NCBI GenBank assembly: GCA_905372865.1
Contig: CAJPQT010000016.1
Span: 1,777-65,776, forward strand
Direction: 5' to 3'
DNA length: 64,000 nucleotides
Source of the DNA: an uncultured Centipeda sp.
GTDB taxonomy: Bacteria > Bacillota > Negativicutes > Selenomonadales > Selenomonadaceae
Below, in pieces: positions 1 through 58,500 of this stretch; within the stretch, counting starts at the first letter, position 1, and each line of letters opens with the position of its first letter. The position numbers and the translations under genes were made by a program. The notes beneath the pieces are model-generated. The model did no database searches. It was not told the origin of the DNA and saw only the letters and a list, made by a program, of their open reading frames with translations.

Positions 1-93
1 CGTCAACGAAATAATAATTATAAATATTATATTAAATATCGTTATGGAGAGGTGAGGGCTTTTGTCAAGCGAAAAATTTCAATGATTTGTCTT

Positions 94-133
94 TTGCAAA
101 GAATCATTAGCCATCTTCCACCATCCTGTGTTA
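94..133 (+). repeat. Copy A of the comM upstream/promoter segment, truncated before the -10 box
   Basis: The 26-nt string ttgcaaagaatcattagccatcttcc (94-119) is identical to 8222-8247. tgtgtta is shared up to 133, after which the sequence diverges. Confidence 0.7.
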
Positions 134-189
134 GGGGCGAGCGATGCGCCCGAGGAAGCGGAATCGCTCCACTTGGTTCTCAATCGTAA

Positions 190-247
190 TCTGACCTGCC
201 CCCAAAAAGTTAGACTTAGGAAAACCAACTTTTGGAGGTCAGGTCAG
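190..247. repeat. Imperfect palindrome with IS3-family-like TG...CA termini (possible solo-IR or MITE-like remnant)
   Basis: TGACCTGCCCCCAAAAAGTTAGAC ... AACTTTTGGAGGTCAGGTCA form inverted arms about 20 nt long. There is no ORF between them. Confidence 0.3.
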
Positions 248-341
248 ATAAGGAATGCTCCTCTTACATATTAAATTTTAGGAACTCAGACTTCGCAGAT
301 AAATAATGTGTTATACCCCTTGAAACAGCTGCCTTGCGGTC

Positions 342-375
342 AAAAAATGATCCTTTCGCGTTTGGGCGAGAGGAT
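342..375 (-). terminator. Intrinsic terminator of the ABC exporter operon
   Basis: 9-bp stem (351-359 with 366-374, one G-U pair) followed on the minus strand by a T-run (342-347), 17 nt after the stop codon. Confidence 0.5.
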
Positions 376-391
376 GCCTTTATGTCCGCGA

Positions 392-2158
392 TCATCCGAT
401 TTTGGACTGAGCTGTCGAAGATGACAGCCTCCACCCGACGGCTGTTCTGCGCGATGCGATGAAGTCGGCGTAGATGCCGTCCTTGGCGATCAGTTCTTCG
501 TGTGTTCCGCGCTGAACGATCCTGCCGTCTGCGACGACGAGGATCTGCGCGGCGTTCCGAACGGTGTTCAGCCGATGGGCGATCATGATGACGGTCTTGT
601 CCTGCGTCAGTGCTTCGATTGCCTGCTGCAGCCGATCCTCGTTCTCCGGATCGACGTTCGCTGTCGCCTCGTCAAAGATGATGATGGGCGCGTCCTTGAG
701 AATGGCACGGGCGATGGAGATGCGCTGCTTTTCGCCGCCCGAAAGGTTTGCGCCACCCTCGCCGACCATTGTTTCATACCCGTTCGGCAGTCTCATGATG
801 AAATCATGACACGCTGCCTTTTTTGCTGCCGCAATGACCTCTGCGCGGCTCGCCTGTGGTCGTCCGAAACGGATGTTGTTTTCGATAGTGTCATGGAAGA
901 GGTAGACGCGCTGAAAGACAATGCTGATCTGTGCCATCAGGGATGCAAGCGTATATTCATTGACATTGTGTTCGCCGATGGTAATTGTGCCGGCATCGAC
1001 ATCCCAGAACCGTGCAATGAGATGGCACAGCGTCGTCTTGCCGGAGCCGCTCGGTCCGACAATCGCCGTCAGACTGCGTTCGGGGATCTCTGCGGAAATG
1101 TCGCGGAGGAGCGGTCTTTCTCCGTAGGAAAAGGATATGCGGTCCAATGTGATATCATGATGCGTGGGGACAATATCTCTGCCGCTTTCATCGAGCTGTG
1201 GAATGGCATCTGTTTCGTTTGTCTCGTCGATGGAGGCGCATACGACGCGGAGCAAAGAGAGCGCACTGCCCGCAGATTCGAGCTGCTGATAGGCGATGAA
1301 GGAGAAGACAATGCACATAATCACATCGAGCAGGGACATTGTTCCTGTGCAATGTGCATAGAGTGCGGCGGCGATGATCAGGATGCTGAAAAAGCGCAGG
1401 GTGAGTTCCTGTGCAGCCACGTATGGGGTAAAGAGACGCTCCATCGAAAGGTTGGCTCGCTCGCTTTCGGCAAGCGCATCGCGCACCTGTCTATCGCCCT
1501 TGCCCGTGAGGTTGAATGCCTTGATGACGTGCATTCCGTGCAGCTGCTCAAGTACAGCCTCGACAAGCGATGCCTGTGCCGCCTGCCGTTTCGGTGCGAG
1601 CATGCGGGATTTTTCCTCCATGGTCGCTGTGACCCACAGATAGAGGGCGATGCCGACAATGAAGACGGCGCCGATGCGCCCATCGAAGACAAAGACCATC
1701 GGGATGAGGATGAGGGTATTCAGGAAGCCGGTCAGCGTGTTGACGAGAACCATGGAGGCAGTTTCCTCCACATCGCCCAGAACAGTTGTAGCGATGCCCG
1801 TGATCCGTCCGAGGCTGCTCTCGTTAAAATAGCCCATCGGGACGCGCTTGAGACGCTCTCCGATGGCGATGCGCTTGTTCGCCGCCATGAAGTAGCCCGC
1901 ATGGACACGCTGCAGTTGTGAGATATACTCGACTACGGATCTACCAAGGATGCTGACGGCGAGGATTACGAGTGCCTGCATCGCCGTATCCATGCCGTCC
2001 GCGTGCTCCATGAGTCCCTTCAGGACGACATAGAGTGCTGCAATTTGCAGGGCGTGGAATATGGCGTAGAGCGCACCGAGCAGCACTGAGCGGTTGAGAT
2101 TTTTTCGCTCGCTGCCCGCGAACGCCCAGATTTTTTTGAGTGCGTCAATCATTTGCAT
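392..2158 (-). CDS. ABC transporter, fused permease/ATP-binding subunit (type I exporter half-transporter)
   Basis: Six-TM N-terminal region. Walker A GPSGSGKTT, signature LSGGEKQRISIARA, Walker B IIIFDEATANVD, H-loop IAHRL. The start is placed at the internal MQMIDALKK, overlapping the upstream partner stop. The 630-aa track ORF has an implausible N-terminal extension. Confidence 0.85.
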   Translation of the reverse strand: MQMIDALKKIWAFAGSERKNLNRSVLLGALYAIFHALQIAALYVVLKGLMEHADGMDTAMQALVILAVSILGRSVVEYISQLQRVHAGYFMAANKRIAIGERLKRVPMGYFNESSLGRITGIATTVLGDVEETASMVLVNTLTGFLNTLILIPMVFVFDGRIGAVFIVGIALYLWVTATMEEKSRMLAPKRQAAQASLVEAVLEQLHGMHVIKAFNLTGKGDRQVRDALAESERANLSMERLFTPYVAAQELTLRFFSILIIAAALYAHCTGTMSLLDVIMCIVFSFIAYQQLESAGSALSLLRVVCASIDETNETDAIPQLDESGRDIVPTHHDITLDRISFSYGERPLLRDISAEIPERSLTAIVGPSGSGKTTLCHLIARFWDVDAGTITIGEHNVNEYTLASLMAQISIVFQRVYLFHDTIENNIRFGRPQASRAEVIAAAKKAACHDFIMRLPNGYETMVGEGGANLSGGEKQRISIARAILKDAPIIIFDEATANVDPENEDRLQQAIEALTQDKTVIMIAHRLNTVRNAAQILVVADGRIVQRGTHEELIAKDGIYADFIASRRTAVGWRLSSSTAQSKIG

Positions 2159-3890
2159 CACCGTCCTTTGCACTGATGTGTGCCTGCCACATGCTGCGGT
2201 ATTCCGTGCAGTCCGAAAGGAGCTGTGTGTGCGTTCCCGATGCTGCGACTGTGCCGCCCGCGATGAGAAAGATCGTATCCGCATCGGTGATGGTAGAGAG
2301 ACGATGCGCGATGATGATGACCGTCTTCCCGGCGATCAGCTGTGCGACAGCGCGCTGGATGACGGCCTCGTTCTCCGGGTCAATGTACGCCGTTGCCTCA
2401 TCGAGGATGACAATGGGGGCGTCCTTCAACATCGCGCGTGCGATCGCGATACGCTGGCGCTCGCCGCCCGAGAGATGGCTGCCGCCGCTGCCGACAAGGG
2501 TATCGTAGCCTTGCTCTAGCTTCTGAATAAACTTCGCACAGCCCGAAAGCTCTGCCGCGTGCTCGACCTGTGCATCGGTCGCCGATGTTTTGCCGAGACG
2601 GATGTTCTCTCGGATCGTGTCGTCAAAGAGATAGGTATCTTGTGCGACAAAGGAAACCAGATCATAGAGCTGTGTGAGCGGGATATCTTTCAGATCGTGT
2701 CCGCCGATGCGGATTGTGCCGTCTTGTACGTCCCAGTATCCAGCGATGAGACGGGCGAGTGTCGATTTCCCGCTGCCGCTTGCACCGACAAATGCGTTCA
2801 GCGTGCCGCTCGGGATCGTGAGACAGATATCGTCTAGGACGTTGTTCGTTCCGTCGTAAGCAAAGGAGACATGCTCCACCGAGATGTTCGTCGTCTCAAC
2901 GGGAATCGGCGTCGTCGCATGGTGCTGCTCCTCAGCAGAGAGAATGGAATCGACAGCACTGACGGTTGTGCCGACCTTTGCGAGTGCATCGATAAAGGAC
3001 ATTGAGGCGAGCAGCGGACCCGCGATCCCGAGGGAGAGGATGATCGTCTGGATAAAGACATCCATCGGAAGAGTACCGTCTTGATACCAGAGCCAGCCCA
3101 CAGGCAGGATCGTAATGAGCGTGGTCGGGGATACCACCTTGTCGACGGACATTGGCAGTTGGCAGTGCAGCATCCAGTGATAGTAGTACGAGGCATTTGC
3201 GCGAACCTTTTCCGAGAACTTTTCATAGGACGCTGCACCTTGGTTGAATGCCTTGATGACCTCGATGCCGCCGATGTACTCGACAACGGCGGCGTTCATC
3301 TCGTCCGTTGTCCGCACCGCCCCTTCGTATTTTTCCTCGTAGTCGCGCATGACGATCGCCATAAAGACCATGCCGACGGGAATCGAGACGAGAGAGAGCA
3401 GCGCCATGCGCCAGTCGAGGATGAGCAAATAGATGAAGATGCACAAGGGGCCAAATGTATTTGCTGTCATCTCCGGCCATAGGTGCGCAATCGTGCGCTC
3501 CATGCTCTCGACCTGATCGACAATCGTGTGCTTCATCGCACCGCTTGCGTGATCGATCACGACACCGAGCGGGAGTTTTGGCAGCTTCTCGAGGACGCGC
3601 GTGCGGATGTTGCGTAGTACAGCGAATGCCGCGCGATGCGACAGCGCAAGAGCCTGTGCATATAGGATGCTGCGTAGGGCATAGCCGACGAAGGCAGTAA
3701 GGCATAGGATGAGATAGAAGCGCGGCTCCACTGCGCCAAAGAGGAGTGCTGTAATCATCTCTGCCGCCGCCCAGTAGGGAACAATCCCCGCGAGTACGCC
3801 GAGTGCCGCAAGTGCAATCGCCATGCGCAGCCGCCCATGCTCCGCAGCGGCGAGTTGCCAGAGTCGCCGCATAGGGCTTGTGTTTTCCAT
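2145..3890 (-). CDS. ABC transporter, fused permease/ATP-binding subunit (partner of 392-2158)
   Basis: Walker A GASGSGKST, signature LSGGERQRIAIARA, Walker B IVILDEATAYID. Start at MENTSPMRR, preceded by GGAGG 7 nt upstream. Confidence 0.85.
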   Translation of the reverse strand: MENTSPMRRLWQLAAAEHGRLRMAIALAALGVLAGIVPYWAAAEMITALLFGAVEPRFYLILCLTAFVGYALRSILYAQALALSHRAAFAVLRNIRTRVLEKLPKLPLGVVIDHASGAMKHTIVDQVESMERTIAHLWPEMTANTFGPLCIFIYLLILDWRMALLSLVSIPVGMVFMAIVMRDYEEKYEGAVRTTDEMNAAVVEYIGGIEVIKAFNQGAASYEKFSEKVRANASYYYHWMLHCQLPMSVDKVVSPTTLITILPVGWLWYQDGTLPMDVFIQTIILSLGIAGPLLASMSFIDALAKVGTTVSAVDSILSAEEQHHATTPIPVETTNISVEHVSFAYDGTNNVLDDICLTIPSGTLNAFVGASGSGKSTLARLIAGYWDVQDGTIRIGGHDLKDIPLTQLYDLVSFVAQDTYLFDDTIRENIRLGKTSATDAQVEHAAELSGCAKFIQKLEQGYDTLVGSGGSHLSGGERQRIAIARAMLKDAPIVILDEATAYIDPENEAVIQRAVAQLIAGKTVIIIAHRLSTITDADTIFLIAGGTVAASGTHTQLLSDCTEYRSMWQAHISAKDGDAND

Positions 3891-3966
3891 AAGAAAACCT
3901 CCATAATCAACGCGATTGGATTTTGTTATCAATTATAAGGTGATATGAAATTTGTGGCAAGCGGAA

Positions 3967-4311
3967 AAGTTCTGAAAGCCGCGAAAACTCCGTCTCGTTA
4001 TTCGTCGTAATCGTCTCAAAAAGCTCTTCGAATGAGGCACCAAACTCTTCTTGGATGGAGTGCAGTGCCTCCACGACCGAACTGCTCTTTTTGTCCTTCA
4101 CCGTGCGCAAACCGAGAAACCGGCTCTTGCGCTCAGCAATGGCAAGAAGAGCTTCCTTCCCCCTACATCCACCAAGCATGAGGTCGGTTTCCCAATGTCG
4201 GAAGGTTGTACGTGTCATAACACACGGATCACGATCATCAATGCTATGCCCATCGATGCTTGCTTGTATTGCAACGCGGCGGTGTCTTTGCTTTCGTCTG
4301 GTACGCTCCGG
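3967..4311 (-). pseudogene. IS30-family transposase fragment (central part only)
   Basis: The translation ...SIDDRDPCVMTRTTFRHWETDLMLGG..ALLAIAERKSRF...ITTNNETEF matches the IS30 HWEGDLI / LVERKTR / DNGxEF pattern. The N-terminal HTH and the C-terminal catalytic residues are missing. Confidence 0.6.
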
Positions 4312-4443
4312 CACTCCGTGAGGGCTTTTTTGATGGAGGTGAAGCGGTGCCGCCCAGAAAGCCAAAGCGTCCCTGGCGCATGACGGGGCTGTCCGAATCT
4401 TACCGACAGAAAAAGCTGTTACTGCGAGGCGCACGAGAAAACA

Positions 4444-4704
4444 ATGCAGCAACACTACGAGAACTTTACGCGCGGCTACGATCAGCATGAGAGATACGTC
4501 AATGCATGGCGCAGGATTCGTGACCGTCACTTGGTAGGGAGCCCTCTCTGTGAGATGTGCAAAGAGCGTGAGAGATACGTTCGCTCAACACTTGTGCATC
4601 ACATCCGATCTCTCGCCGATGGCGGCACATATGATGAGAGCAATTTGATGTCGCTCAGCATCTCCTGTCATGAACAGATTCACCAAAGAAAAAAGCCGTC
4701 CTAA
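4444..4704 (+). CDS. Small phage-type HNH endonuclease (possibly 5'-truncated or frameshifted)
   Basis: WRRIRDRHLVGSPLCEMCKERERYV..LVHHIRSLADGG...NLMSLSISCHEQIH fits the HNH motif. An upstream out-of-frame stretch PRKPKRPW resembles the usual N-terminus of this family. Confidence 0.65.
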   Translation: MQQHYENFTRGYDQHERYVNAWRRIRDRHLVGSPLCEMCKERERYVRSTLVHHIRSLADGGTYDESNLMSLSISCHEQIHQRKKPS

Positions 4705-4713
4705 ATGGACAGC

Positions 4714-4995
4714 TCATTCATCGAATATATCTGCATGAGTTCCAGTTTCGACAAGAGTCAAGGTTAGGATGTCATTTTCAACAAGGTAAACCAATAGCCA
4801 ATCCGATTGAATATGGCACTCGCGAAATCCCTCCCAATTGCCATGAAGTGCATGGTCACGGTATTTGGGATCTAGCTTGTGCCCCTGTCCCAATGCTTCG
4901 ACAACATCATCCAGTAGCTTGAGATTCAAGCCACGTTTCTTGGCACACTTGTAACTTTTCTTATAAGCGTTGGTGAACTTGATGTGATAGGTCAT
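4714..4995 (-). CDS. yafQ: Type II toxin, YafQ/RelE family mRNA interferase
   Basis: KYRDHALHGNWEGFRECHIQSDWLLVY...ETGTHADIF is collinear with E. coli YafQ. It overlaps the antitoxin stop by 4 nt. Confidence 0.85.
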   Translation of the reverse strand: MTYHIKFTNAYKKSYKCAKKRGLNLKLLDDVVEALGQGHKLDPKYRDHALHGNWEGFRECHIQSDWLLVYLVENDILTLTLVETGTHADIFDE

Positions 4996-5264
4996 TCTTC
5001 CAATGCCCTCTTCAAGTCGTCCATGTTGTCATAGCTGGGGACGTTTGGGTCGCGGGAGATTTTTCTTGCTTCTTCCATAGCTGCCAAGGCGCTTTGCTTA
5101 TAATGGGGCATTTCGATAGAAAATGGGATACCTCCACGAAGAACGCACTGATGCAGAAACATATTAACTGCACCGGACATATCCAAGCCAAGCCCAGAGA
5201 ACAACGCGCCGGCCTGTTCTTTTATGTTCCGGTCAATTCTTATTTGGGTAGGAACCGTTGACAT
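4992..5264 (-). CDS. dinJ: Type II antitoxin, DinJ/RelB family
   Basis: The ribbon-helix-helix N-terminus TQIRIDRNIKEQAGALFSGLGLDMSGAVNMFL matches DinJ. ATG at 5264 lies 10 nt after GGAG. Confidence 0.8.
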   Translation of the reverse strand: MSTVPTQIRIDRNIKEQAGALFSGLGLDMSGAVNMFLHQCVLRGGIPFSIEMPHYKQSALAAMEEARKISRDPNVPSYDNMDDLKRALEE

Positions 5265-5292
5265 AATAACCACACTCCTTTCTTTTAGAAAC

Positions 5293-5321
5293 AGTATAGC
5301 TTGTTTGGTTTACGATGTAAA
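5293..5321 (-). promoter_or_regulatory. Sigma-70-type promoter of dinJ-yafQ
   Basis: On the minus strand, TTTACA (5321-5316), a 17-nt spacer, then TATACT (5298-5293). Confidence 0.45.
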
Positions 5322-5458
5322 GCAAAAAAGCACTTGTGACTAGAGAGGGGGGGGCAAATCTCTAAAACTGCGTCATTACTGGACCGGGGAGGGGGCGCAC
5401 GCACAAAAACGTCGGTTCAAAGGGGGGATTAAAGGAATGGGGGGCAAGAAGATGGCGC

Positions 5459-6226
5459 GTGACGCTACAAGGCGAGATTCCGCAGTACTATGTGGAGGAG
5501 CACCACGAGCCGATTATCTCGCCGGACTTATTCGATTTTGTGCAATCGGAGATAAAGCATAGAGAGCAGAACGGCAAGCACAGCGGCGTGAGCATCTTCG
5601 CGAACAAAATCAAATGCGGCTGCTGCGACGGTTGGTGCGGGGCGAAGGTGTGGCATTCGACGGACAAGTACCGCAGGGTGATCTATTGCTGCAACAAGAA
5701 ATATGCCCACAAAGGGAAGCCGTGCAGCACACGGCATTTGACGGGAGAGGAGATCAAACAGACTTTCGTCAAGGCACTGAATTCCTTGGTGGAAGTCAAA
5801 GAGAACGTGATTGCAGAACTCCGAACTCTGATAGACAGCATTTGTCAGACGGAGGAGCTGCCGGAGGAGCGGGATAAAGTAGAGCAGGAACTCGGTGTTT
5901 TGGCAGAACGTCTTGAAACACTGATTTATGAGAATGCACGGGTGGCACAGGATCAGACGGCATATCTGAAACAGGAAAATGAGATTCGCGCACTCTATGT
6001 GGAAAAGCAGGAGGATATGGAGAAGTTGGACGAGCAAATTGCCGAGAGGGAGCGCAAGAGAAACACCTTGGAGGGCATGATTCATGCGCTCTGTGGTATT
6101 AACGGGGCGCAGGTTGTGTTCGATGAGGCGTTATGGTGCGGGCTGCTCGATCACATTATAGTCAAGGAGTATGGTGCGATAGTTGTTGTTTTCAAGGGTG
6201 GGATTGAGATTGGTGTTGATGGATGA
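5459..6226 (+). pseudogene. Large serine recombinase, C-terminal fragment (zinc ribbon plus coiled coil); catalytic resolvase domain absent
   Basis: YYVEEHHEPIISPDLFDFVQ, the Cys-rich KCGCCDGWCG...YCCNKKY...CSTRH, a long coiled coil, and the tail VVVFKGGIEIGVDG. There is no N-terminal Ser-recombinase domain and no convincing start or RBS. Confidence 0.75.
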
Positions 6227-6275
6227 AGTATGTCTGCATGTTACGTAGACTGCATAGAATGGTTCTGTTCATCAG

Positions 6276-7187
6276 TTACCATATGATACGATCCTTTCTT
6301 GTTTTTTTCAGCCAATCCAAGAGGAATTGACGGAATGTACGCGCCGCTTCGGTGAGGATGACGGTCTTGTCCTGTATGAGGCATACCTCCTGCCCCGCAT
6401 CTTTTCCGTCGCCAAGTTCTCGCATGACAATGTCCGGCTGTCTGTTCATGACGGCTGCGTAGTCGTAGCCGAGATTGATCGCAGGATTATGACGCAGCAG
6501 ATCAACAATGAGGGATTCATCGGCAGTTTCGGCTAGAATCTCGATTTTGAGACCTGGCAGGAGGATGTGTTTGTCGATATTATGACGGAAACAGTGATAG
6601 GCGCGTCCTTTACTGATGATCATTTGCCCGTCGAGATCTGTGTAGGTGATACGGCTCTTTTCTGCCAAGGGATGATGCGCAGAGAGACGAGCACAGTAGC
6701 GGGAGAAAAAGAGTGTGTCCCCTTGAAAGCGTGTCTGATCAAAAGGGGCGGTGACAATGGAAAAATGACATCGCTTTGTCAGAAGTCCCTCCATTGCATC
6801 GTCGTCCGTTGTATCGACAATGCTCAAAATAATGCTCGGATGGGCGGCATGAAAATCCTGTAGAAATTGCGATCCAAGATAAGAAAAGACGTGATCCAGT
6901 GCAAAAATGGTAACGACACTTTTTGAATGGGTGGCGAGGGATTTCATGCTTTCGATGGATTGATATTCATCCAGCATACGTTGAACGTGGGGCAGTAGCG
7001 CTGCTGCATAATCGGTCGGAATGATTCCTCGTGGGGTACGGGTGAAAAGCGGCTGCCCAAGCTCCGCCTCCAATGATCTCATCGCTCTGCTGAGACCTTG
7101 TCTTGCAACATAAAGATGATCTGCTGCCGTCTGGATATTGCCGCAGCGATAGACCTCAATGAAATACTCCATCTGTTTTCGATTCAT
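6276..7187 (-). CDS. LysR-family transcriptional regulator
   Basis: N-terminal HTH MNRKQMEYFIEVYRCGNIQTAADHLYVARQGLSRAMRSLE plus a substrate-binding domain. Start at the third ATG, 7 nt after GGGAGG. Confidence 0.85.
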   Translation of the reverse strand: MNRKQMEYFIEVYRCGNIQTAADHLYVARQGLSRAMRSLEAELGQPLFTRTPRGIIPTDYAAALLPHVQRMLDEYQSIESMKSLATHSKSVVTIFALDHVFSYLGSQFLQDFHAAHPSIILSIVDTTDDDAMEGLLTKRCHFSIVTAPFDQTRFQGDTLFFSRYCARLSAHHPLAEKSRITYTDLDGQMIISKGRAYHCFRHNIDKHILLPGLKIEILAETADESLIVDLLRHNPAINLGYDYAAVMNRQPDIVMRELGDGKDAGQEVCLIQDKTVILTEAARTFRQFLLDWLKKTRKDRIIW

Positions 7188-7333
7188 CTTCATACCTCCC
7201 AGCTTTTTCATCGTTATCTATTTTACCGCAACAATATTGTTTCGGCAAGCCCCGTTGTTTTTCTTGTTATCATTTGGGAAGTTCGATATACTGCTGAAAC
7301 AGATCAACCAAATGATGAACAGGAGGAACACTT

Positions 7334-8146
7334 ATGAAACTCACACAGATTCGCAATGCAACGAACCGTTTGGATTATGCGGGGAAAGTCTTTCTGATTG
7401 ATCCGTGGCTTGCACCGAAACACCAGATGTCATTTGTCGATATTCCGGACATGCCGTTCCACATCCCCGATCCGATGAAGGAGCATCTTCCGATGCCGTT
7501 CTATAATTTGCCGATGGATATGGGGCAGATTTTGAGCGGTGTCGACTACTACATCGTTACGCATCTGCATCCCGATCATATTGATATGGCACCGGACGGG
7601 ACGGTCGGTGCGCCGCTTGATAAGGCGGTTCCAGTCATCTGTCAGTCAGAGGAGGATGCCTCTGTTCTGCGGAGTTCCGGGTTTTCAGAGGTAATCGTCC
7701 TGCCGACAAGCGGTATGGAGTTCGGTGCGGCGAGACTGACCCGCGTCCCTGCCCTGCACGGCACCGTTGTTCCGTGCGGTGACGCGATGGGGATTGTGTT
7801 TGAGGCACCAGAGGAGAACATCTTCTATTTGGCAGGGGATACGGTCTGGTATTCCGGCGTAGCTGAGACACTGCGGAACTATCAGCCTGAGGTGATTGCC
7901 CTGAACTGTTGTGCCGCAGAGACCGTGGAAAATGGACGCCTCATCATGAACGATGAGGATGTTCACTGCGTTGCAATGACTGCGCCTAACGCCCGTCTTT
8001 ATCTGACGCACTTGGACAATGTCGCACATGCTGCGCTTACGAGGCATACACTGCGAGGTTGTTTGGCACGTCGCGGCGTGGTGAATTATGATATGCCGTC
8101 CGATGGTGCGTCGGTTGAATATAAAGCCGCAACAGTCGGAGCTTAA
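7334..8146 (+). CDS. MBL-fold metallo-hydrolase
   Basis: HLHPDH (HxHxDH) motif. It is divergent from the LysR gene. Confidence 0.75.
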   Translation: MKLTQIRNATNRLDYAGKVFLIDPWLAPKHQMSFVDIPDMPFHIPDPMKEHLPMPFYNLPMDMGQILSGVDYYIVTHLHPDHIDMAPDGTVGAPLDKAVPVICQSEEDASVLRSSGFSEVIVLPTSGMEFGAARLTRVPALHGTVVPCGDAMGIVFEAPEENIFYLAGDTVWYSGVAETLRNYQPEVIALNCCAAETVENGRLIMNDEDVHCVAMTAPNARLYLTHLDNVAHAALTRHTLRGCLARRGVVNYDMPSDGASVEYKAATVGA

Positions 8147-8177
8147 TTCCTGTCATACGGTAAATTCCGCACACAAA

Positions 8178-8220
8178 AGAGATTCCATTCGCCCCACTTA
8201 GCGCCTGGAATCTCTTTTTT
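8178..8220 (+). terminator. Intrinsic terminator (copy 1 of a duplicated hairpin)
   Basis: AGAGATTCCA, an 18-nt loop, TGGAATCTCT, then a T-run. The same stem recurs at 10031-10073 with only two loop differences. Confidence 0.6.
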
Positions 8221-8298
8221 GTTGCAAAGAATCATTAGCCATCTTCCCCTCTCTTGTGTTATAATTCTCTTATATTTGAAACGTAGGAGGGAAGGCCG

Positions 8299-8469
8299 TT
8301 GTTTGCAAAGACCTATGGCGCGACGACCCTCGGGATTGACGGACGGATCATCGACGTTGAGGTGGATGTGTCACCGGGGCTGCCGGGCTTTGAGTTGGTC
8401 GGGCTTCCCGATACGTCGGTGAAGGAATTAACGATGTTCGTAAGAGCGTGGTATTATTTCTATAAATAA
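8299..8469 (+). pseudogene. Copy B: comM/yifB 5' fragment (first ~43 codons, then unrelated tail) with its own promoter and RBS
   Basis: Extended -10 TGtTATAAT at 8257-8265, RBS AGGAGGG, TTG start, then MFAKTYGATTLGIDGRIIDVEVDVSPGLPGFELVGLPDTSVKE. About 90% nucleotide similarity by eye to 12516-12645. Homology stops at about 8426. Confidence 0.8.
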
Positions 8470-8507
8470 CGAACATCCTAATGATAGAGACCGAAGGAGC
8501 TGTTTGT

Positions 8508-9887
8508 TTGATTTGGGAGAAACTAAAAGATTTTTTTGACTTGCATGGCGACATTGCCTCGACACAGGAAATTACGAAGCGGATCAACGCCGGCGTGCGA
8601 TTTCGGGGGACGAATCTCAGTGTCCTGATGCTGGCGATCTTTATCGCCTCCATCGGGCTCAATATGAACAGCACGGCGGTCATCATCGGCGCGATGCTGA
8701 TTTCTCCGCTGATGGGGTCGATCCTTGGAATTGGCTATGGGCTTGCCCGTTATGACAGCACATACATTCGTTCCAGCGCAGGAAGTCTGCTCGCTCAAGT
8801 GATCATTTCGGTTGCCACATCGACGCTTTACTTTTCCCTCACACCGATCGATGCCCCTTCGTCGGAACTGCTTGCACGGACATCGCCGACCATCTGGGAC
8901 GTTTTGATTGCTGTCTTTGGCGGCTTGGCAGGAATCATCGGCGTAACACGCAAAGAGGGCGGGAATGTCATCCCTGGTGTTGCGATTGCAACAGCTCTGA
9001 TGCCTCCTCTCTGCACCGCAGGATATGGCATTGCTACCGGCGTTATGGCGTACACCGTGGGTGCACTCTACCTGTTCTTTATCAACAGCTTCTTTATCTG
9101 TCTGACGACATTCATCGTCCTGAAAATCATTGACATTCCCTCCAAGATAGAGCGCAACTCCGTGGAATTTTCAAGACAGAAACGCTACCTGATGGCTTTT
9201 GCAGTGCTTGTCACGCTGCCCAGCTGCTTCTTTGCGTATCAAAGCGTGCAGAAAAATCTGGAGAACGAGCAGGCGAAGATTTATATCGAGGAGAATTTCA
9301 AAGCACCTCCTCGTCTGGCAATCTCCTATACTTTGGATAACGAGAAGAAAATGCTGACAGTGTTTACGATTGCCGGAATATCGGAGGATGATTTGACGGT
9401 ATTGACAGAGAAACTGCATGAAAAGGCACATCTTAGACCGTTCCGGTTGGAGGTGTTTTCTGCGGAAACGGTTGAAGAGAGAGAAAAGATGGAGGCGATG
9501 ATCGATCAAAGACTCAGCGAGGTTGAAAAAAGTGCCATTCCCTCTATGCAGGAGCAGCAGACCGTGACCGCACTCAAGTCTGCCCGCGAGGAAAGTGAGA
9601 AGCAGGGGACTTACATATTGGACTGGAATCGAGAGGCGCGTATTGTATTTCCGCAAATCTCCCGCATCGCTGTCGGGAGTGTACACGCACCCGCCGGGAC
9701 TGGGGATCAATCGGCTGCTCTGAGTGAAACGCAAATTGCGTTCATATATCTGCAATCGGATATGGACGAAGCATCGCGTGCTCGCTTGACCGAATGGATT
9801 TCGGACAAAGCAAAGAACCGTGTAGAGGTGCACTTCCTTCCTGAAGTCTCGGCAGCAAATGAAAACAAAGGAGGAACTGTATCTTAG
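8508..9887 (+). CDS. DUF389/TIGR00341-family integral membrane protein with a C-terminal soluble extension
   Basis: LSVLMLAIFIASIGLNMNSTAVIIGAMLISPLMGSILG..., and VIPGVAIATALMPPLCTAGYG is typical of DUF389. A TTG start at 8508 lies 8 nt after GAAGGAG (the track ORF starts at 8481). Confidence 0.7.
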   Translation: MIWEKLKDFFDLHGDIASTQEITKRINAGVRFRGTNLSVLMLAIFIASIGLNMNSTAVIIGAMLISPLMGSILGIGYGLARYDSTYIRSSAGSLLAQVIISVATSTLYFSLTPIDAPSSELLARTSPTIWDVLIAVFGGLAGIIGVTRKEGGNVIPGVAIATALMPPLCTAGYGIATGVMAYTVGALYLFFINSFFICLTTFIVLKIIDIPSKIERNSVEFSRQKRYLMAFAVLVTLPSCFFAYQSVQKNLENEQAKIYIEENFKAPPRLAISYTLDNEKKMLTVFTIAGISEDDLTVLTEKLHEKAHLRPFRLEVFSAETVEEREKMEAMIDQRLSEVEKSAIPSMQEQQTVTALKSAREESEKQGTYILDWNREARIVFPQISRIAVGSVHAPAGTGDQSAALSETQIAFIYLQSDMDEASRARLTEWISDKAKNRVEVHFLPEVSAANENKGGTVS

Positions 9888-10030
9888 GACGGAGTCCACA
9901 TATCGTGAAAAAACATGAGACTACATAATCATTCAGATCGTGTAATGCTGTGCGTCTTTCATTAGAGGCTCTTCATAGAGAAGGAGTGCATCTTTTTCCA
10001 GATAAGCTCCCAAGCTTATAACACACAACG

Positions 10031-10073
10031 AGAGATTCCATTCGCCCCACCTAGCGACTGGAATCTCTTTTTT
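10031..10073 (+). terminator. Intrinsic terminator (copy 2 of the duplicated hairpin)
   Basis: Same 10-bp stem as at 8178-8215, followed by a T-run. Confidence 0.6.
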
Positions 10074-10077
10074 GTTG

Positions 10078-10291
10078 CAAAGAATCATTAGGCAACACAC
10101 CCTCTCTTGTGTTATAATTTTCTTATATTTGAAACGTGGGAGGGAAGACCGTTGTTTGCAAAGACCTATGGTGCGACGACCCTCGGGATAGATGGACGGA
10201 TTATTGACGTTGAAGTGGATGTGTCGCCGGGGCTGCCGGGCTTTGAGCTGGTCGGGCTTCCCGATACGTCGGTAAAGGAGTCAAAGGAGCG
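10078..10291 (+). repeat. 214-bp perfect direct repeat, left copy (comM promoter, RBS and codons 1-47)
   Basis: Base-for-base identical by eye to 12442-12655 (offset 2364 bp). Confidence 0.85.
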
Positions 10292-10550
10292 TGTGACGAT
10301 GAATCTTGCACTCGCCGATGTGCGAAAGGACAGATCGGGGCTTGATCTGCCGATTGCCGTTGGTTTCCTTGCATCCTACGGTATGGTTTCGGAGGCGGCG
10401 GCGCAGAGTGCGCTTTTCTCAGCGGAGCTTTCTCTCGATGGAAACTGCCATCCGATCAGCGGCATTCTTCCAATGGCGATTACGGCATGTGAGCGGGGAC
10501 TGACGAAGTTCTACGTTGCTCCGTCCATTGCGGTGGAGAATTTCATCTGA
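10152..10550 (+). pseudogene. Copy C: comM/yifB 5' fragment (~codons 1-145, with a 16-codon internal deletion)
   Basis: Translation matches ComM through ...FYVAPS, then diverges to a stop. It lacks RTAIRNSGIQLRQERV relative to the intact gene. Extended -10 at 10110-10118. Confidence 0.85.
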
Positions 10551-10590
10551 CAACATTTCTATTTTTGTATACTTCCTAGACATGACGAAT

Positions 10591-10635
10591 CCCTACTGTT
10601 GTAATTTTTATTTTACAACAGTAGGGATCTTTTTT
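10591..10635 (+). terminator. Intrinsic terminator after the comM fragment
   Basis: Perfect 14-bp stem CCCTACTGTTGTAA / TTACAACAGTAGGG with an 8-nt loop, followed by a T-run. Confidence 0.7.
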
Positions 10636-10651
10636 ACTGTCCGTTCTCTAG

Positions 10652-11179
10652 AGAGCTGTCCACTTGACCGAGGAGGAAATGAAACAGATTTTCGTCAAGG
10701 CACTGAACTCCTTGATGGAAGTCAAAGAGAACGTGATCGCAGAACTCCGTTCCCTGATTGATAGCGTTTGCCAGATGGAGGAGCTGATAGAGGAGCGCAG
10801 TATGGTAGAGCAAGACTTAGGCAATTTGGCAGAAAGGATTGAAAAACTGATTCGCGAGAATGCACTGGTGGCACAGGACCAGACGGCATATCTGAAACAG
10901 GAAAATGAGATTCGCGCACTCTATGTGGAAAAGCAGGGACGTTTGGAGCAGTTGGACGAGCAAATTACCGAGAGGGAGAGTAAGAGAAACGCTTTGGAGA
11001 GCATGATTCAAGTGCTATGTGGTATCAACGAGGAGCAGGTTGCGTTTGACGAGGAGCTATGGGGCGGGGTGCTCGATCACATTATGGTCAAGGAGGATGG
11101 TGTGGCAGTTGTTGTTTTCAAGGGTGGGATTGAGAGCGGCGTTGATGGATGTAGAGGTTTGTTCTATTTAAGGAAATAA
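10652..11179 (+). pseudogene. Second large serine recombinase fragment (coiled-coil and C-terminal part only)
   Basis: Collinear with residues ~HLTGEEIKQ to the end of the 5459-6226 fragment (for example ALVAQDQTAYLKQENEIRALYVEKQ and VVVFKGGIE). The zinc ribbon and catalytic domain are absent. Confidence 0.75.
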
Positions 11180-11304
11180 AGCGGATGAAGATCGGTACTC
11201 TATAGGGGGACATTGGCAGGGAAAAGATGCGCTGAGAGAAGTTGGACTACAGTTATCAGCGTTTCTTACAATACAGTCAACAAATTAATTAAGAAGTGTT
11301 ATCC

Positions 11305-11913
11305 TTAAAGCTTTTCGAGTTGTTTTAAATGATCTTGCACTAATGTGTGTGAATACATTTTAGGTTGATCGGAATCACGAACAATTCGCCATAGGATAGC
11401 AGCTGCCTTTAATTTTGATTTGAACTTGTCATTTATGGGATCAGCGCAGAAATCTTTTAAGAAGCGGTTCCATTCGCATACAGAAGAATCATACTTTGCA
11501 TACGTCGATATCCCCTTATATACATTCAACATGTCCTGTATAGTAAACGATGTGTCGTGATCCGCTTTCACCTTTCGCCATGCGGTCGCCATATCTGCTG
11601 TAAATTTAAAGGGAGAAACCCTCGTCAGATTTGAGAAATATGTTCTAAACTTTGTGTTGAACGAAAAGTTGCAAGCAAGTAATGGTGTGTCCAAGGAAAT
11701 CGCTCCAGATGACATCATCTGCTCTTTTTGGGGAGTGGCTTTGACTATGTTCCCTTTAAAGTATTCTGCAATGTTGTGATTGAGATCTTTTTTTACCCCC
11801 CTGTGTGCAATTCCAAGCTTTTTGCAAATCTCTACGAGTTCTGTTCGATACCAATAATATTTTATAAACTCCTCATATGAGCGAATCTCATCAAATGCAG
11901 GACGCTGTGTCAT
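11305..11913 (-). CDS. SAP-domain-like protein of unknown function
   Basis: The N-terminal YEEFIKYYWYRTELVEICKKLGIAHRGVKKDLNHNIAEYF resembles a SAP DNA-binding motif. The ORF is intact, with GAGGAG RBS and a TGaTATAAT promoter. The segment is visibly AT-richer than its surroundings. Confidence 0.55.
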   Translation of the reverse strand: MTQRPAFDEIRSYEEFIKYYWYRTELVEICKKLGIAHRGVKKDLNHNIAEYFKGNIVKATPQKEQMMSSGAISLDTPLLACNFSFNTKFRTYFSNLTRVSPFKFTADMATAWRKVKADHDTSFTIQDMLNVYKGISTYAKYDSSVCEWNRFLKDFCADPINDKFKSKLKAAAILWRIVRDSDQPKMYSHTLVQDHLKQLEKL

Positions 11914-11951
11914 AATGACATCTCCTCGTAAATAGCAGGTCAGACGAATAG

Positions 11952-12385
11952 ATGTCTATCATTATATCACATTTATGGTATGACACAACGCATGATTTCG
12001 AGATGGGGCAGGCGCGTGTCTTTCGGTGTGGCCGCATCACTGTGGTGGAGGAGTGTACGGATGTGACGGGGATGCCACTTTTATCCTTTGCTCATCCCGC
12101 AGAGGATCTCTATTGCCGTGTCGATGCACTCTCCTTTGTCGTCGAGATTACGGCACAGGGACGGGATTTCTTTTTTATAAAGAACACTATCCATCCATGC
12201 GACTTGTGGAGGAGAATGGGCGGTACTATATCCATGGATTTTACAATGTGGGCGAGGAGGAGTTCATCGCGGATTACTTTATCCACTATGGGGATGCAGT
12301 GCAAACAGTCGAGCCTTTGGCACTCAGAGATGTGATCCGCACAAGACTGCATACGTTGACGGTGCATTATAAGGAGATAGCGTAA
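11952..12385 (+). pseudogene. WYL-domain transcriptional regulator remnant (no HTH, frameshifted)
   Basis: Frame 1 gives HLWYD...ARVFRCGRITVVEE (WYL-domain-like). Frame 2 gives HYPSMRLVEENGRYYIHGF...YFIHYGDAVQTVEPLALRDVI (typical C-terminal WCX-like end). The two pieces are split between two frames. Confidence 0.55.
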
Positions 12386-12441
12386 TTCTTCATTATGTGT
12401 AGAGCCTCCCGCATGGGGGCTGCTACAGGCAGTTTTTTTCA

Positions 12442-12655
12442 CAAAGAATCATTAGGCAACACACCCTCTCTTGTGTTATAATTTTCTTATATTTGAAACG
12501 TGGGAGGGAAGACCGTTGTTTGCAAAGACCTATGGTGCGACGACCCTCGGGATAGATGGACGGATTATTGACGTTGAAGTGGATGTGTCGCCGGGGCTGC
12601 CGGGCTTTGAGCTGGTCGGGCTTCCCGATACGTCGGTAAAGGAGTCAAAGGAGCG
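12442..12655 (+). repeat. 214-bp perfect direct repeat, right copy
   Basis: Identical to 10078-10291. Confidence 0.85.
12453..12482 (+). promoter_or_regulatory. comM promoter (extended -10)
   Basis: TGtTATAAT at 12474-12482 with a weak -35 (TAGGCA). The ORF-track N-terminus MCYNFLIFETWEGRP is actually this promoter and RBS read as protein. Confidence 0.55.
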
Positions 12656-14045
12656 GGTACGCACCGCAATCCGCAACTCCGGCATTCAGCTGCGGCAGGA
12701 GCGTGTGACGGTGAATCTTGCGCCCGCCGATGTGCGAAAGGACAGCTCCGGTCTTGATCTGCCGATTGCCGTCGGTCTCCTTGCATCCTACGGTATGGTT
12801 CCGGAGGCGGCGGTGCAGAATGCACTGTTCTCAGCGGAGCTTTCCCTCGATGGGAACTGCCGTCCGATTAGCGGCATTCTCCCGATGGCGATTACGGCGC
12901 GTGAGAATGGGCTGACGGAGTTTTACGTTGCACCGTCGAACGCAGATGAGGCACTTCTGATTGACGGACTGAAGGTCTATGCGGTCGAGAATCTGGCGCA
13001 GCTTGTGCGTCATTTGACAGGGGCAGAAACACTGACTCCCGCTGAGCCACAAGCAACAGAACAGAAAAAGGACGCTGCGTTTACCGATGACTTTGCGGAC
13101 GTACAGGGGCAGTATCAGGCGAAACGTGCGCTTGAGATTGCGGCAGCAGGAGGGCACAATGTCCTCATGGTTGGCGTTCCCGGCTCGGGCAAGACGATGC
13201 TGGCACGTCGGATGCCTTCGATTCTGCCGGAGCTGACGAAGGAAGAAGCCATCGAGATCACGAAGATTTACAGCATCTCGGGGCTGCTCGGAAAGGATAC
13301 AGGGCTTGTGACCACGCGCCCCTTCCGCAGTCCGCATCATACGTCCTCGACGGTGGCGATGATCGGCGGCGGGAGCATTCCGCGTCCGGGCGAGGTGACG
13401 CTTGCCCATCACGGCGTGCTCTTTCTCGACGAGCTGCCGGAGTTCAGCAAGAAGACGCTTGAGGTGCTGCGTGAGCCAATCGAGGATCGTCAGATTACGG
13501 TGTCGCGTGCGAACGCGACGCTGACCTTTCCCTCTAGTATCATTTTGGTAGCGGCAATGAATCCGTGCCCCTGCGGATTCAGTGGCGATAAAGATCATGT
13601 ATGTGAATGTTCTGCGGGCGAGATCAAACGATATACGCGCAAGCTGTCAGGACCGCTGCTTGACCGTATCGATCTTCATATCCGTGTGTCGCGTGTGACC
13701 TATTCGGATCTTCATGCTACGCGCCGGGCAGAGCCCTCCGAAGCGATTCGTCAACGTGTTGTGGCGGCGCGTATGATTCAGCATGAGCGCCTGCAGCGGC
13801 ATGGGCTCTTTTGCAACGCCCAGATGAATCACAGTATGATCAAAAAATATTGTCGCCTTGAGAAAGAGGCGGAAGGATTGCTCGAAGCGGCTTTTCATCG
13901 TATCAACCTATCGGCGCGTTCCCATGACCGTATCATTAAGGTGGCGCGGACGATCGCAGATCTCTCGCAGTCCCAAAACATTACAGCGGCACATATCGCG
14001 GAGGCGATACAGCTGCGTGCTGATGTCGGACTGAACATTGAGTGA
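12516..14045 (+). CDS. comM: ComM/YifB Mg-chelatase-like AAA+ protein (competence-associated helicase family)
   Basis: TTG start 7 nt after GGGAGGG. N-terminal Lon-like domain, Walker A GVPGSGKT, Walker B VLFLDELPEF, Cys cluster NPCPCG, and a C-terminal Mg-chelatase subunit ChlI domain. Confidence 0.9.
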   Translation: MFAKTYGATTLGIDGRIIDVEVDVSPGLPGFELVGLPDTSVKESKERVRTAIRNSGIQLRQERVTVNLAPADVRKDSSGLDLPIAVGLLASYGMVPEAAVQNALFSAELSLDGNCRPISGILPMAITARENGLTEFYVAPSNADEALLIDGLKVYAVENLAQLVRHLTGAETLTPAEPQATEQKKDAAFTDDFADVQGQYQAKRALEIAAAGGHNVLMVGVPGSGKTMLARRMPSILPELTKEEAIEITKIYSISGLLGKDTGLVTTRPFRSPHHTSSTVAMIGGGSIPRPGEVTLAHHGVLFLDELPEFSKKTLEVLREPIEDRQITVSRANATLTFPSSIILVAAMNPCPCGFSGDKDHVCECSAGEIKRYTRKLSGPLLDRIDLHIRVSRVTYSDLHATRRAEPSEAIRQRVVAARMIQHERLQRHGLFCNAQMNHSMIKKYCRLEKEAEGLLEAAFHRINLSARSHDRIIKVARTIADLSQSQNITAAHIAEAIQLRADVGLNIE

Positions 14046-14068
14046 CATGACAAATAGGGAGCATAGAT

Positions 14069-14398
14069 ATGACGACGGAACATATAGAGGATGTAAAACT
14101 TGAAATCTTTATTCCGGAGACGCACCTCGCTCAGCTGCGGCATGCACTGCAGTCTGTGGATGCGGGACATCTTGGAAACTATGACAGCTGTCTTGCGTAC
14201 TCGCATGTAACAGGATCATGGCGACCACTTGCAGGAGCTTCGCCGTACGAGGGAACCATCGGGGAGCTGTCCGAGGCACCGGAACTCAAAGTCGAACTGC
14301 GTGTGAAAGCGGCTCGTTTGGAGGAGACACTATCCGCGATCCGCGCCGTTCATCCCTATGAGATGCCTGAGATCTTCGTTATTCCACTGTTGTGCTGA
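14069..14398 (+). CDS. Small PII-like/NIF3-insert-like protein (COG3323-type), function unknown
   Basis: 109 aa with KLEIFIPETHLAQLRHAL...GHLGNY..C...G.W.P. Recognised from memory of the family. GGGAG RBS. Confidence 0.55.
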   Translation: MTTEHIEDVKLEIFIPETHLAQLRHALQSVDAGHLGNYDSCLAYSHVTGSWRPLAGASPYEGTIGELSEAPELKVELRVKAARLEETLSAIRAVHPYEMPEIFVIPLLC

Positions 14399-33149: not shown

Positions 33150-33206
33150 GTCCCTGTGTATCGTGTGGTACACAGGGATTTCATATTATGGAAAAGAGTT
33201 TTTCTT

Positions 33207-33350
33207 AGCGCTGGCTCTGGGTTATCCTTGCCCAGAGGACGAGGAGAAGGTTGTCGAGCCGTCAGCGGATGCCTTCCGGCACGCTCTGTCGAGAGTCTGT
33301 GGTCAAAGCGCAGGGGCGACCCTGCGGACAAAGCTGCAGATGGAGCGAAA
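33207..33350 (+). ncRNA. glmS ribozyme (GlcN6P-activated self-cleaving leader)
   Basis: A|GCGC cleavage-site context, GACGAGGAGAAGGUUGUCGA, and GCGGAUGCCUUCCGGC core blocks, collinear with Bacillus glmS ribozymes. It lies immediately 5' of glmS. The 3' boundary is approximate. Confidence 0.85.
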
Positions 33351-33391
33351 TCCCTGAGCGATGGATTGATTATCGGTCAGGAGGTATTTTT

Positions 33392-57203: not shown

Positions 57204-57559
57204 TTGGTATGAGAAATCGAGACAATCGCGTCCATTCAACGGGCGAGGAAAGTCCGAGCTCCACAGGGCAGTGTGCTGGATAACGTCCAGCGAGGGTGAC
57301 CTTAGGGACAGTGCCATAGAAATTTAGACCGCCGATCTAGGATCGGTAAGGGTGGAAAGGTGCGGTAAGAGCGCACCAGCAGTCGGGTGACCGGCTGGCT
57401 TCGGTAAACCCCACATGGAGCAAGACCAAATAGGGAAGGGCTAAGGCGGCCCGCCAACCTTCCGGGTAGTGTCGCTAGAGGCGTCCGGCAACGGGCGTCC
57501 CAGATAAATGATTGTCGCCGCCCATCGGGCGGAACAGAACTCGGCTTATTGGTTTCTCA
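57204..57559 (+). ncRNA. rnpB: RNase P RNA (bacterial, type-A-like)
   Basis: GAGGAAAGUCCGAGCUCCACAGGGCA and ACAGAACUCGGCUUA universal blocks. P1 pairs GAGAAAUC with GGUUUCUC. Ends are accurate to about 10 nt. Confidence 0.9.
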
Positions 57560-57627
57560 CATCAATACTATGAACGCATTTATTGTGCGCGGGACTTCCC
57601 CGTGCATTCGTGGAAGGAAGTGTTTGC

Positions 57628-58290: not shown

Positions 58291-58303
58291 TGATACAGAA
58301 TCT

Positions 58304-58329
58304 GGGGAGGGGCATAGCCCCTCTTTTTT
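58304..58329 (+). terminator. Intrinsic terminator
   Basis: GAGGGGC ata GCCCCTC followed by a T-run. Confidence 0.7.
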
Positions 58330-58343
58330 CATAGGAGAAACCA

Positions 58344-58421
58344 ATGTCCGATCTCTTTCTTTGCCTTCTCATTTTCCTCATGCTATACTATGTCTTTGGT
58401 GATGAACTCTTTCCGCGCTGA
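58344..58421 (+). CDS. Candidate 25-aa hydrophobic small protein (MSDLFLCLLIFLMLYYVFGDELFPR)
   Basis: ATG lies 7 nt after AGGAG. The ORF is below the track size cutoff, and there is no homology evidence. Confidence 0.3.
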   Translation: MSDLFLCLLIFLMLYYVFGDELFPR

Positions 58422-58500
58422 TGTTTCTACATTAAATACAAAATTATTCCTTTCGGTTGCAATCTGCTATAAATTTATGTAATATGAGGAGCGTATCATC

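Follow-up and report, generated by a model that had tools for sequence, protein, structure and literature searches.

Background

In standard mobile elements that use large serine recombinases (LSRs), the phage and bacterial attachment sites (attP and attB) are only loosely similar apart from a shared central dinucleotide, and the junctions attL and attR differ from both. Here we describe the region upstream of comM, a gene of the YifB/ComM (Mg-chelatase) family, in a 64,000-nucleotide stretch of DNA from an uncultured Centipeda sp. (contig CAJPQT010000016.1, positions 1,777 to 65,776; hereafter the window). The region holds four copies of the comM 5' end, and we conclude that it very probably represents the fossil remains of temperate phages stacked at an attachment site in comM of an oral Selenomonas. 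Elements that stack at, alter or split a conserved gene are known from several bacteria. SCCmec and composite staphylococcal cassette chromosome (SCC) islands, inserted by CcrA and CcrB at rlmH (orfX), stack upon one another, restore only a few 3'-terminal bases of the gene and are not phages. The SXT/R391 elements that integrate at prfC reportedly supply the gene with a new promoter and 5' coding end. In Acinetobacter, comM is split by the AbaR/Tn6022 islands, Tn7-like transposons that leave a short target duplication.

Homologues of the Mg-chelatase/ATP-dependent-protease gene (comM/yifB) are the most enriched target of predicted site-specific LSRs (12.4%), and LSR target genes are described as disrupted (Durrant et al. 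2022, PMC10083194). The sr1WO phages of Wolbachia integrate in an Mg-chelatase gene, parts of which flank the prophage (PMC9203015). Tandem accretion with serine recombinases has been described for the ssrA islands of Dehalococcoides (PMC3146451), an article in which accretion of ICESt1 is also cited. An earlier note on this DNA, made from its letters alone, knew of no equivalent of 5'-end replacement at comM in a Firmicutes-type genome. Part of that claim falls, as comM-type Mg-chelatase genes are published LSR targets (PMC10083194). What stands is the form that restores the gene with 1.1 kb of its own sequence: in the literature, including the Heliusvirales paper, we found no description of serine-recombinase phages carrying about 1 kb of the 5' end of their target, nor of phage-borne comM fragments.

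Four comM 5' ends in the window

The 14-mer CAAAGAATCATTAG, which precedes comM, has four matches in the window, at positions 97, 8225, 10078 and 12442, every one on the forward strand and in direct orientation. The mean chance expectation is 0.4, and none of 100 shuffles contained four or more copies. Repeat finding and alignment gave the extents of the copies. Copy A (97–133) is a promoter stub with the -35 element and the spacer, its final TGTGTTA reaching two bases into the TATAAT -10 box. Copy B (8178–8431) comprises a terminator, a promoter (8236–8265), a TTG start at 8299 and about 43 codons. Copy C (10031–10538) has a terminator, a promoter and a start at 10152 and extends to about codon 143–145; a 48-bp in-frame deletion between GGAGCG repeats has removed 16 codons, leaving about 129. 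Copy D (12442–14045) is a complete comM with its promoter at 12453–12482, a TTG start at 12516 and its stop at 14045. It scores 610 bits against the TIGR00368 model (cut-off 362) and contains the Pfam domains ChlI, Mg_chelatase and Mg_chelatase_C of a full-length YifB/ComM protein.

The promoters consist of TAGCCA or TAGGCA, an 18-nt spacer, and TATAAT with a preceding TG (TAGCCA-18-TATAAT in copy B). The variant of A pairs with that of B, and that of C with that of D. Copies B and C have 45 bp of upstream terminator in common, which A and D lack. Copies C and D are 100% identical over 214 bp (10078–10291 versus 12442–12655), and then only 87%. The four same-orientation copies and the pairing of their promoter variants were already recognized in the earlier note, which also had copy B at about 43 codons and copy D complete. 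It ended copy A before the -10 box and credited copy C with about 145 codons. The 45 bp of terminator common to B and C and the 214-bp identity of C and D were not among its points.

The closest matches to the window ComM in a scan of species-representative genomes came from an uncultured Selenomonas (96% amino acid identity) and S. massiliensis (95%), and by these similarities the window belongs to the oral Selenomonas/Centipeda group of the Negativicutes. An exact-protein look-up of the window ComM returned no record; the same look-up of a YafQ toxin encoded between copies A and B was the source of strain-variant contigs.

Direct and closely spaced repeats could also arise by local tandem duplication of the comM 5' region, or by misassembly of repeats. 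However, the copies differ from one another by 8–20%, the segments between them are mutually unrelated, and every unit matches a prophage right end elsewhere, as described below. Moreover, the window junctions are found again in independent metagenome assemblies (L081, L082, L083 and L086; L numbers denote comparison loci), so the array is not an assembly artefact. We consider both origins scarcely credible.

A single junction at codon 349

Many oral Selenomonas and Centipeda genomes contain extra comM pieces that comprise residues 1–349 only. The pieces share the orientation of the full gene, lie 15–57 kb upstream of it and were found in S. flueggei, S. felix (two to three), S. massiliensis, S. 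artemidis, Centipeda periodontii (two) and several metagenome-assembled genomes (MAGs). In ten loci from eight species comM breaks at one nucleotide, after nt 1046 in codon 349, corresponding to window position 13561/13562. The extended set numbers 25 junctions, taken from genomes of oral Selenomonas and Centipeda and from contigs of oral metagenomes and IMG/VR, and all have this break; past nt 1046, about 45 conserved bases are followed by at least eight unrelated cargo families.

At the junction (marked here by a slash) full comM genes read ...GCAATGAA/TCCGTGCCCCTGCGG..., and the attB of the window, at 13561/13562, reads ...GCAATGAA/TCCGTGCC... The extra pieces continue beyond nt 1046 with CGAAGTAACGTCGATAACGATACAATGTAATGAT... 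The phage-side site is ...GGTAGCGGCAATGAA/CGAAGTAACGTCGATAACGATAC, and the join from phage to comM after nt 1046 is ...GGTAGCGGCAATGAA/CGAAGTAACGTCGATAACGATACAATG. Because one base is followed by about 45 conserved bases and then by unrelated cargo, the junction carries the signature of site-specific exchange: an exact, single target junction and a short element-side site that is conserved irrespective of cargo. No other junction was seen to recur with different cargo. Tandem arrays of comM 5' ends are found in S. felix, S. massiliensis, S. flueggei and Centipeda as well as in the window, with its four copies, and in the contig L081, with further copies upstream.

Prophages with paired serine recombinases

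Two recombinase fragments in the window match the C-terminus of a 523-aa LSR (LSR2), intact in L010, L059, L061 and L071, where about 3.8 kb separate the end of its gene from a downstream comM start. A second recombinase gene, LSR1 (about 554 aa, 39% identical to LSR2), lies directly upstream of LSR2 in L010, L059 and L061, and in L010 and L061 its ORF overlaps that of LSR2. Resolvase, Recombinase and zinc ribbon domains are present in both proteins in the relatives L010, L059, L061 and L104. More than 30 IMG/VR contigs keep a full-length LSR2 at 90% identity or above, many of them predicted prophages of about 40 kb that end just after LSR2. L104 encodes a tape measure protein, tail genes, a holin, LSR1 and LSR2. 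The left end of one complete prophage carries an ORF6N/Rha-type gene, a Schlafen-HTH gene and early replication genes and no other integrase; a tyrosine integrase was found neither in the window nor at either end of the related prophages. The elements are tailed temperate prophages of about 40 kb. From left to right they consist of the left-end site, the phage genes and the holin gene, then LSR1 and LSR2, one to three cargo genes, and finally a terminator, a promoter and comM codons 1–349. Two contigs (L091 and L109) that had been taken for the two junctions of a circularly permuted genome proved to be one stretch, with no evidence for a circle.

The IMG/VR contig L146 (13250–13494) comes from a phage with a 59%-identical LSR and no comM 5' segment. 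It joins comM at the identical base, ...CCAAGGAA/TCCCTGCCCCTGCGGG (GAA/TCC, Asn349/Pro350). Because phage DNA other than comM is joined there, the base at nt 1046 is a recombinase crossover point independent of homology. L146 looks like the disruptive counterpart of the gene-restoring design, which probably arose from a disruptive ancestor of this type that captured flanking host DNA in an aberrant excision. Among distant LSR phage contigs (55–68% identity) only L146 has comM, on its 3' side, so the restoring design is not general to the recombinase clade. Gut phage records suggest that the design is more widespread, and it is visible there without comment. In the record of Evtepia phage NatCom_42594 (PV036445.1; L184/L185), labelled a complete genome, about 300 codons of the ComM 5' part lie internally and stop near the Walker B motif; tblastn also gives three LSR-like stretches, and all of these are annotated as hypothetical (58174–59169, 949–6488).

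An element of 15 kb at the codon-349 junction of S. flueggei (L048 11100–20100) has no phage genes and an N-terminally truncated LSR2. Its cargo includes an MNT/HepT toxin-antitoxin pair, several hydrolases, a flavodoxin and an aldo-keto reductase. This is a decayed or satellite form at the same site.

Composition of copy D

Between species, comM nt 1–1046 show a mean identity of 88.7% compared with 74.8% for nt 1047–1530, and the rankings of the two parts are decoupled. The comM genes of the window and S. artemidis are 96.2% identical up to nt 1046 and 70.9% identical after it; identity is 100% over nt 720–1000, with two mismatches near 1002–1005, and about 75% from nt 1051 on. In F0473, a species without these elements, the corresponding values are only 78% and 71.5%, so the step does not come from constraint alone. 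Copy D is chimeric, with 12516–13561 phage-borne and 13562–14045 native. With its promoter and start, the phage-derived part (codons 1–349) spans 12442–13561, and the native 3' third of the gene (codons 350–509) follows at 13562–14045, both on the forward strand. An intact attB lies across the boundary (13537–13586, forward strand), and homology with the phage-side site stops at 13561/13562.

The stretch shared by phage and host extends about 1.13 kb to the left of the junction, so that the left half-sites are identical in sequence. As a consequence the rebuilt gene again holds attB and the left junction has the phage-site sequence; this can be read directly off the sequences and accounts for the stacking. 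This is a departure from standard LSR elements. Instead of sites with only a central dinucleotide and loose similarity in common, and attL and attR distinct from both, we find attL equal to attP and attR equal to attB in sequence, with left arms identical over about 1.13 kb.

Probable decay of the three segments

Segment 3, between copies C and D, begins with an LSR2 remnant (residues 361–523, about 10661–11179, forward strand). It is followed at 11305–12335 by a SAP-domain gene (reverse strand) and a 127-aa ORF (forward strand), right-end cargo that follows intact LSR2 in IMG/VR prophage contigs. Since window positions 10670–13861 are colinear with L127, whose LSR2 is intact (92%), and positions 11156–12394 are 99.7–99.9% identical to L113, L126 and L127, this segment is a prophage right end. 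Everything from about codon 143 of comM, in the left-junction copy C, to about residue 360 of LSR2 is deleted. Strains are polymorphic at this point. L082 (98–99% identical to window 3348–9978) has copy C intact to codon 349, the full junction and an element bearing AbiH and a transposase, and L081 (97–99% identical) has another deletion, in which the truncated comM is fused directly to LSR2 at about residue 197.

Segment 2, between copies B and C, holds a promoter-like match at the B junction and a gene for a DUF389 membrane protein (8428–9887, forward strand). In L125 the DUF389 cargo comes right after the LSR2 stop codon, with a comM-like terminator and promoter in front. Segment 2 is accordingly a right end as well, from another phage variant. 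What lay between codon 43 of copy B and the DUF389 promoter has been deleted. Both B and C are left-junction fragments trimmed by later deletions.

Alternatively, and more literally, three elements might have integrated at three sites (the -10 box, codon 43 and codon 145), with the ends of copies A, B and C as their attachment sites. The copies do end at three different points, and the junction between copy B and DUF389 was seen once more, with the same DUF389 cargo, in S. felix (L051). However, only codon 349 recurs with different cargo, and the end of copy C differs among near-identical strains (window, L081 and L082). Copy B joins the interior of a DUF389 promoter that in L125 stands just after the LSR2 stop, and no integrase is tied to any of these end points. 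We regard integration at three sites as very improbable beside deletion from a common codon-349 junction.

Segment 1, between copies A and B, contains an LSR2 remnant (residues 273–523, about 5459–6226, forward strand) that lacks the catalytic domain. It lies directly before a LysR regulator gene (reverse strand) and a metallo-beta-lactamase-fold (MBL) gene (forward strand) at 6276–8146, followed directly by the terminator and comM promoter of copy B. By analogy with the other two, this segment may be a third prophage right end. Both window recombinase fragments are integrase remnants, C-terminal only and without a catalytic domain, and the contents of the array are immobile remnants only.

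The LysR-MBL block is 95–98% identical in S. massiliensis, S. infelix and S. felix. In the insert-free alleles of S. massiliensis (L002) and S. infelix (L004) it runs through the promoter straight into a full comM, so that the 4.1 kb corresponding to 8431–12515 are absent. This colinearity first suggested that LysR-MBL is the native comM flank. We now rate it as cargo: its identity of 95–98% is found in species that are about 81% identical in their core genes, a recombinase remnant lies immediately before it, and F0473, Mitsuokella and rumen species conserve a different set of flanking genes. The ancestral flank in F0473, Mitsuokella and rumen Selenomonas consists of ORFs of 302, 256 and 674 aa, none of which is within reach at the window locus. 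In S. infelix (L004 2278–11881) the LysR-MBL-comM block is inverted with respect to the genes that follow comM in the window, and window 14410–19999 matches L004 7856–2278 in reverse.

The array goes on upstream in L081, which is 98.8% identical to window 1–1685 and whose positions 11250–14243 (reverse strand) correspond to 0–2.8 kb left of position 1. This part contains HigB/HigA, a C-terminal terminase remnant, a lone comM-type terminator (12470–12436), a 209-aa ORF and, behind a small membrane-protein gene, a further promoter copy (13603–13538) that ends just past the -10 box.

Exchange between copies has also occurred within the array. The 214 bp over which C and D are identical extend from where homology starts to the 48-bp indel; within them, D goes from 99.7% to 95% identity with L126 and L127. 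From this pattern, C and D appear to have exchanged the 214 bp later by gene conversion.

The earlier note had proposed repeated integration at a comM hotspot with replacement of the 5' end. This core idea holds, with the crossover at codon 349 and not at the ends of the copies. The inserts are not complete small elements but deletion remnants of prophage right ends. The mobile-element debris that it listed between the copies was recovered: two truncated serine recombinases, an HNH gene and a YafQ/RelB pair. It also listed an IS30 fragment; the domain search gave a weak integrase-core (rve) match. It had also asked for empty sites, further upstream copies and a check against misassembly. Related genomes supply the first (L002 and L004), the near-identical contig L081 the second, and the independently assembled junctions in L081, L082, L083 and L086 the third.

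Proposed mechanism and its limits

In the mechanism that we propose, the phage site recombines with comM and is joined to it after nt 1046. The earlier promoter and codons 1–349 would remain at the left junction as a dead fragment, and the phage-borne codons 1–349 would fuse in frame to the native codons 350–509. The rebuilt gene would again be a perfect attB, into which the next phage could insert, giving a tandem stack. At least three layers would have been laid down in the window, and more upstream. The layers would then have lost most of their prophage DNA through deletions, apparently favoured, that begin within the left-junction fragment and end within the recombinase gene or shortly after it. 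The units remaining would be LSR'-LysR-MBL-(B), DUF389-(C) and LSR'-SAP-orf127-(D), where LSR' denotes a truncated LSR2. The LSR pair would catalyse the exchange.

The same structure is predicted if the phages integrated and were lost by homologous (Campbell-type) recombination through their 1.1 kb of comM, as in specialized transducing phages, with a minor role for the serine recombinases. Homologous exchange clearly acts in the array, as seen in the 214 bp of complete identity between C and D, the drop from 99.7% to 95% in flanking phage DNA, and the mosaic of D against S. artemidis. However, about 45 bp beside the junction are conserved while the cargo beyond is unrelated, more than 30 contigs retain full-length LSR2 at 90% identity or above, and L146, a related phage without comM homology, joins comM at the identical base. 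We therefore think homologous integration unlikely. Site-specific exchange is favoured by the 45 phage-side bp that are conserved whatever the cargo, the wide retention of the LSR genes, the lack of another integrase in the prophages and the L146 join.

Several points weigh against this interpretation. The structure by itself fits an LSR crossover at nt 1046 or a RecA-dependent single crossover anywhere in the 1.1-kb shared stretch. The window contains no intact recombinase and no left junction, and its history is reconstructed from relatives; the further upstream copies, likewise, come from a 99%-identical metagenome contig and not from the window's own flank. We found no intact prophage with LysR-MBL as right-end cargo, and segment 1 and copy A are accordingly the parts of which we are least sure. 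Dyad symmetry in the phage site (11/22) is not above chance, being reached in 375 of 500 shuffles, and symmetry is not used as evidence. Finally, to our knowledge canonical LSRs do not recombine a site with a B-type half with attB, which makes identical left half-sites mechanistically awkward. The attB region does contain an inverted repeat, GAATCCG...CGGATTC (5 of 500 shuffles). Since its centre is placed 8–9 bp right of the junction, where attP and attB have no bases in common, this repeat cannot mark the crossover.

One possibility, which we put forward tentatively and consider somewhat less probable than its opposite, is a self-renewing attachment system in which the target gene itself makes up the left half of the phage site, the products have the sequences of the substrates, and the right halves alone distinguish the sites. 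The LSR pair may run in both directions without a separate directionality factor, and in this it would be nearer to CcrAB than to Bxb1 or phiC31.

Other features of the locus

Two ABC exporter genes (392–3932, reverse strand) next to copy A are cargo, 97–98% identical to genes upstream of comM arrays in the MAG L005 and in S. massiliensis L065. They are followed by the weak rve fragment (3907–4530, reverse strand; E=0.002, below the Pfam cut-off), the HNH gene (4444–4704, annotated as such in matching contigs) and the pair of YafQ toxin and RelB antitoxin (4714–5273, reverse strand). Beside copy A, at 188–247, are two short inverted copies of CTGACCTGCCCCCAAAAAGTT, 18 bp apart. This motif also precedes a transposase ORF in the tail of L125, and the arrangement resembles the two ends left by an insertion sequence that has lost its interior.

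The deletion junction between copy B and DUF389 has a promoter-like sequence, TTAACG-18-TATTAT with TG, at 8428–8457. There is no terminator between DUF389 and the copy B promoter, and the gene may be read from both promoters. In L125 (4333–4480) the look-alike of the comM terminator and promoter before DUF389 reads CAAAGAAGCATTAGGCAACAC...TGGTATAAT, and copies of the comM-type promoter such as this may serve cargo genes. At the S. felix B/DUF389 junction (L051 8146–8310) we observed an inserted repeat of about 165 bp with terminal inverted repeats (GGAATCGCTGATAAA...TTTATCAGTGCTTCC) and flanking TTAA. Further copies are present in L002 (1320–1488 and 4048–4214), L010 (11950–12117) and L098 (11518–11688), and the repeat is probably a family of miniature inverted-repeat transposable elements (MITEs).

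Downstream of comM the window is ordinary chromosome, with a glmS ribozyme at 33196–33351 (88.6 bits) and a class A RNase P RNA at 57210–57563 (303.6 bits). No tRNA genes were found in the whole 64 kb.

Significance

Insertions in comM-type genes are usually interpreted as disrupting the gene and as a phage's interference with competence; this whole group of oral phages returns an intact copy. Their activity explains the layers of foreign cargo upstream of oral Selenomonas comM (ABC exporters, toxin-antitoxin pairs, regulators and membrane proteins), and why the first two-thirds of comM are far more similar between species than the last third. Programs that call element boundaries on the expectation of short repeats may misplace the ends of such elements. 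For serine integrases the locus raises the mechanistic question of how sites with identical left halves are told apart, and the comM site is a naturally re-usable landing pad.

Comparison with known systems

The comparison made in the earlier note with the AbaR/Tn6022 islands is an analogy only. The same target gene family is involved, but the window comM is intact and no Tn7-like transposition domains were found in the ORFs of window 1–12500. The LSR elements that target comM homologues, including sr1WO, share with the Selenomonas phages the enzyme class and the target gene family, and sr1WO are also phages. However, those elements are described as disrupting the gene, whereas the Selenomonas phages carry a terminator, a promoter and 349 codons and rebuild it.

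With the Dehalococcoides ssrA islands and ICESt1 the locus has in common tandem elements at one site, repeats of the target end as boundaries, and many decayed members without an integration module. The repeat in Dehalococcoides is a 20-bp tmRNA 3' end, compared with up to 1.13 kb of a protein-gene 5' end plus promoter here. The SCC elements are similar in their two adjacent LSR genes, a conserved target gene that is kept intact, a regenerated attachment site and tandem stacking. The Selenomonas LSRs are not Ccr orthologues, however, scoring 130–134 bits with the CcrB model (cut-off 900) and 71–72 bits with the CcrA model (cut-off 700). As in SXT/R391, the incoming element gives the target gene a new promoter and 5' coding end, but SXT uses a tyrosine integrase and a 17-bp core and replaces a short 5' end, whereas the Selenomonas phages have serine recombinases and replace 1.1 kb.

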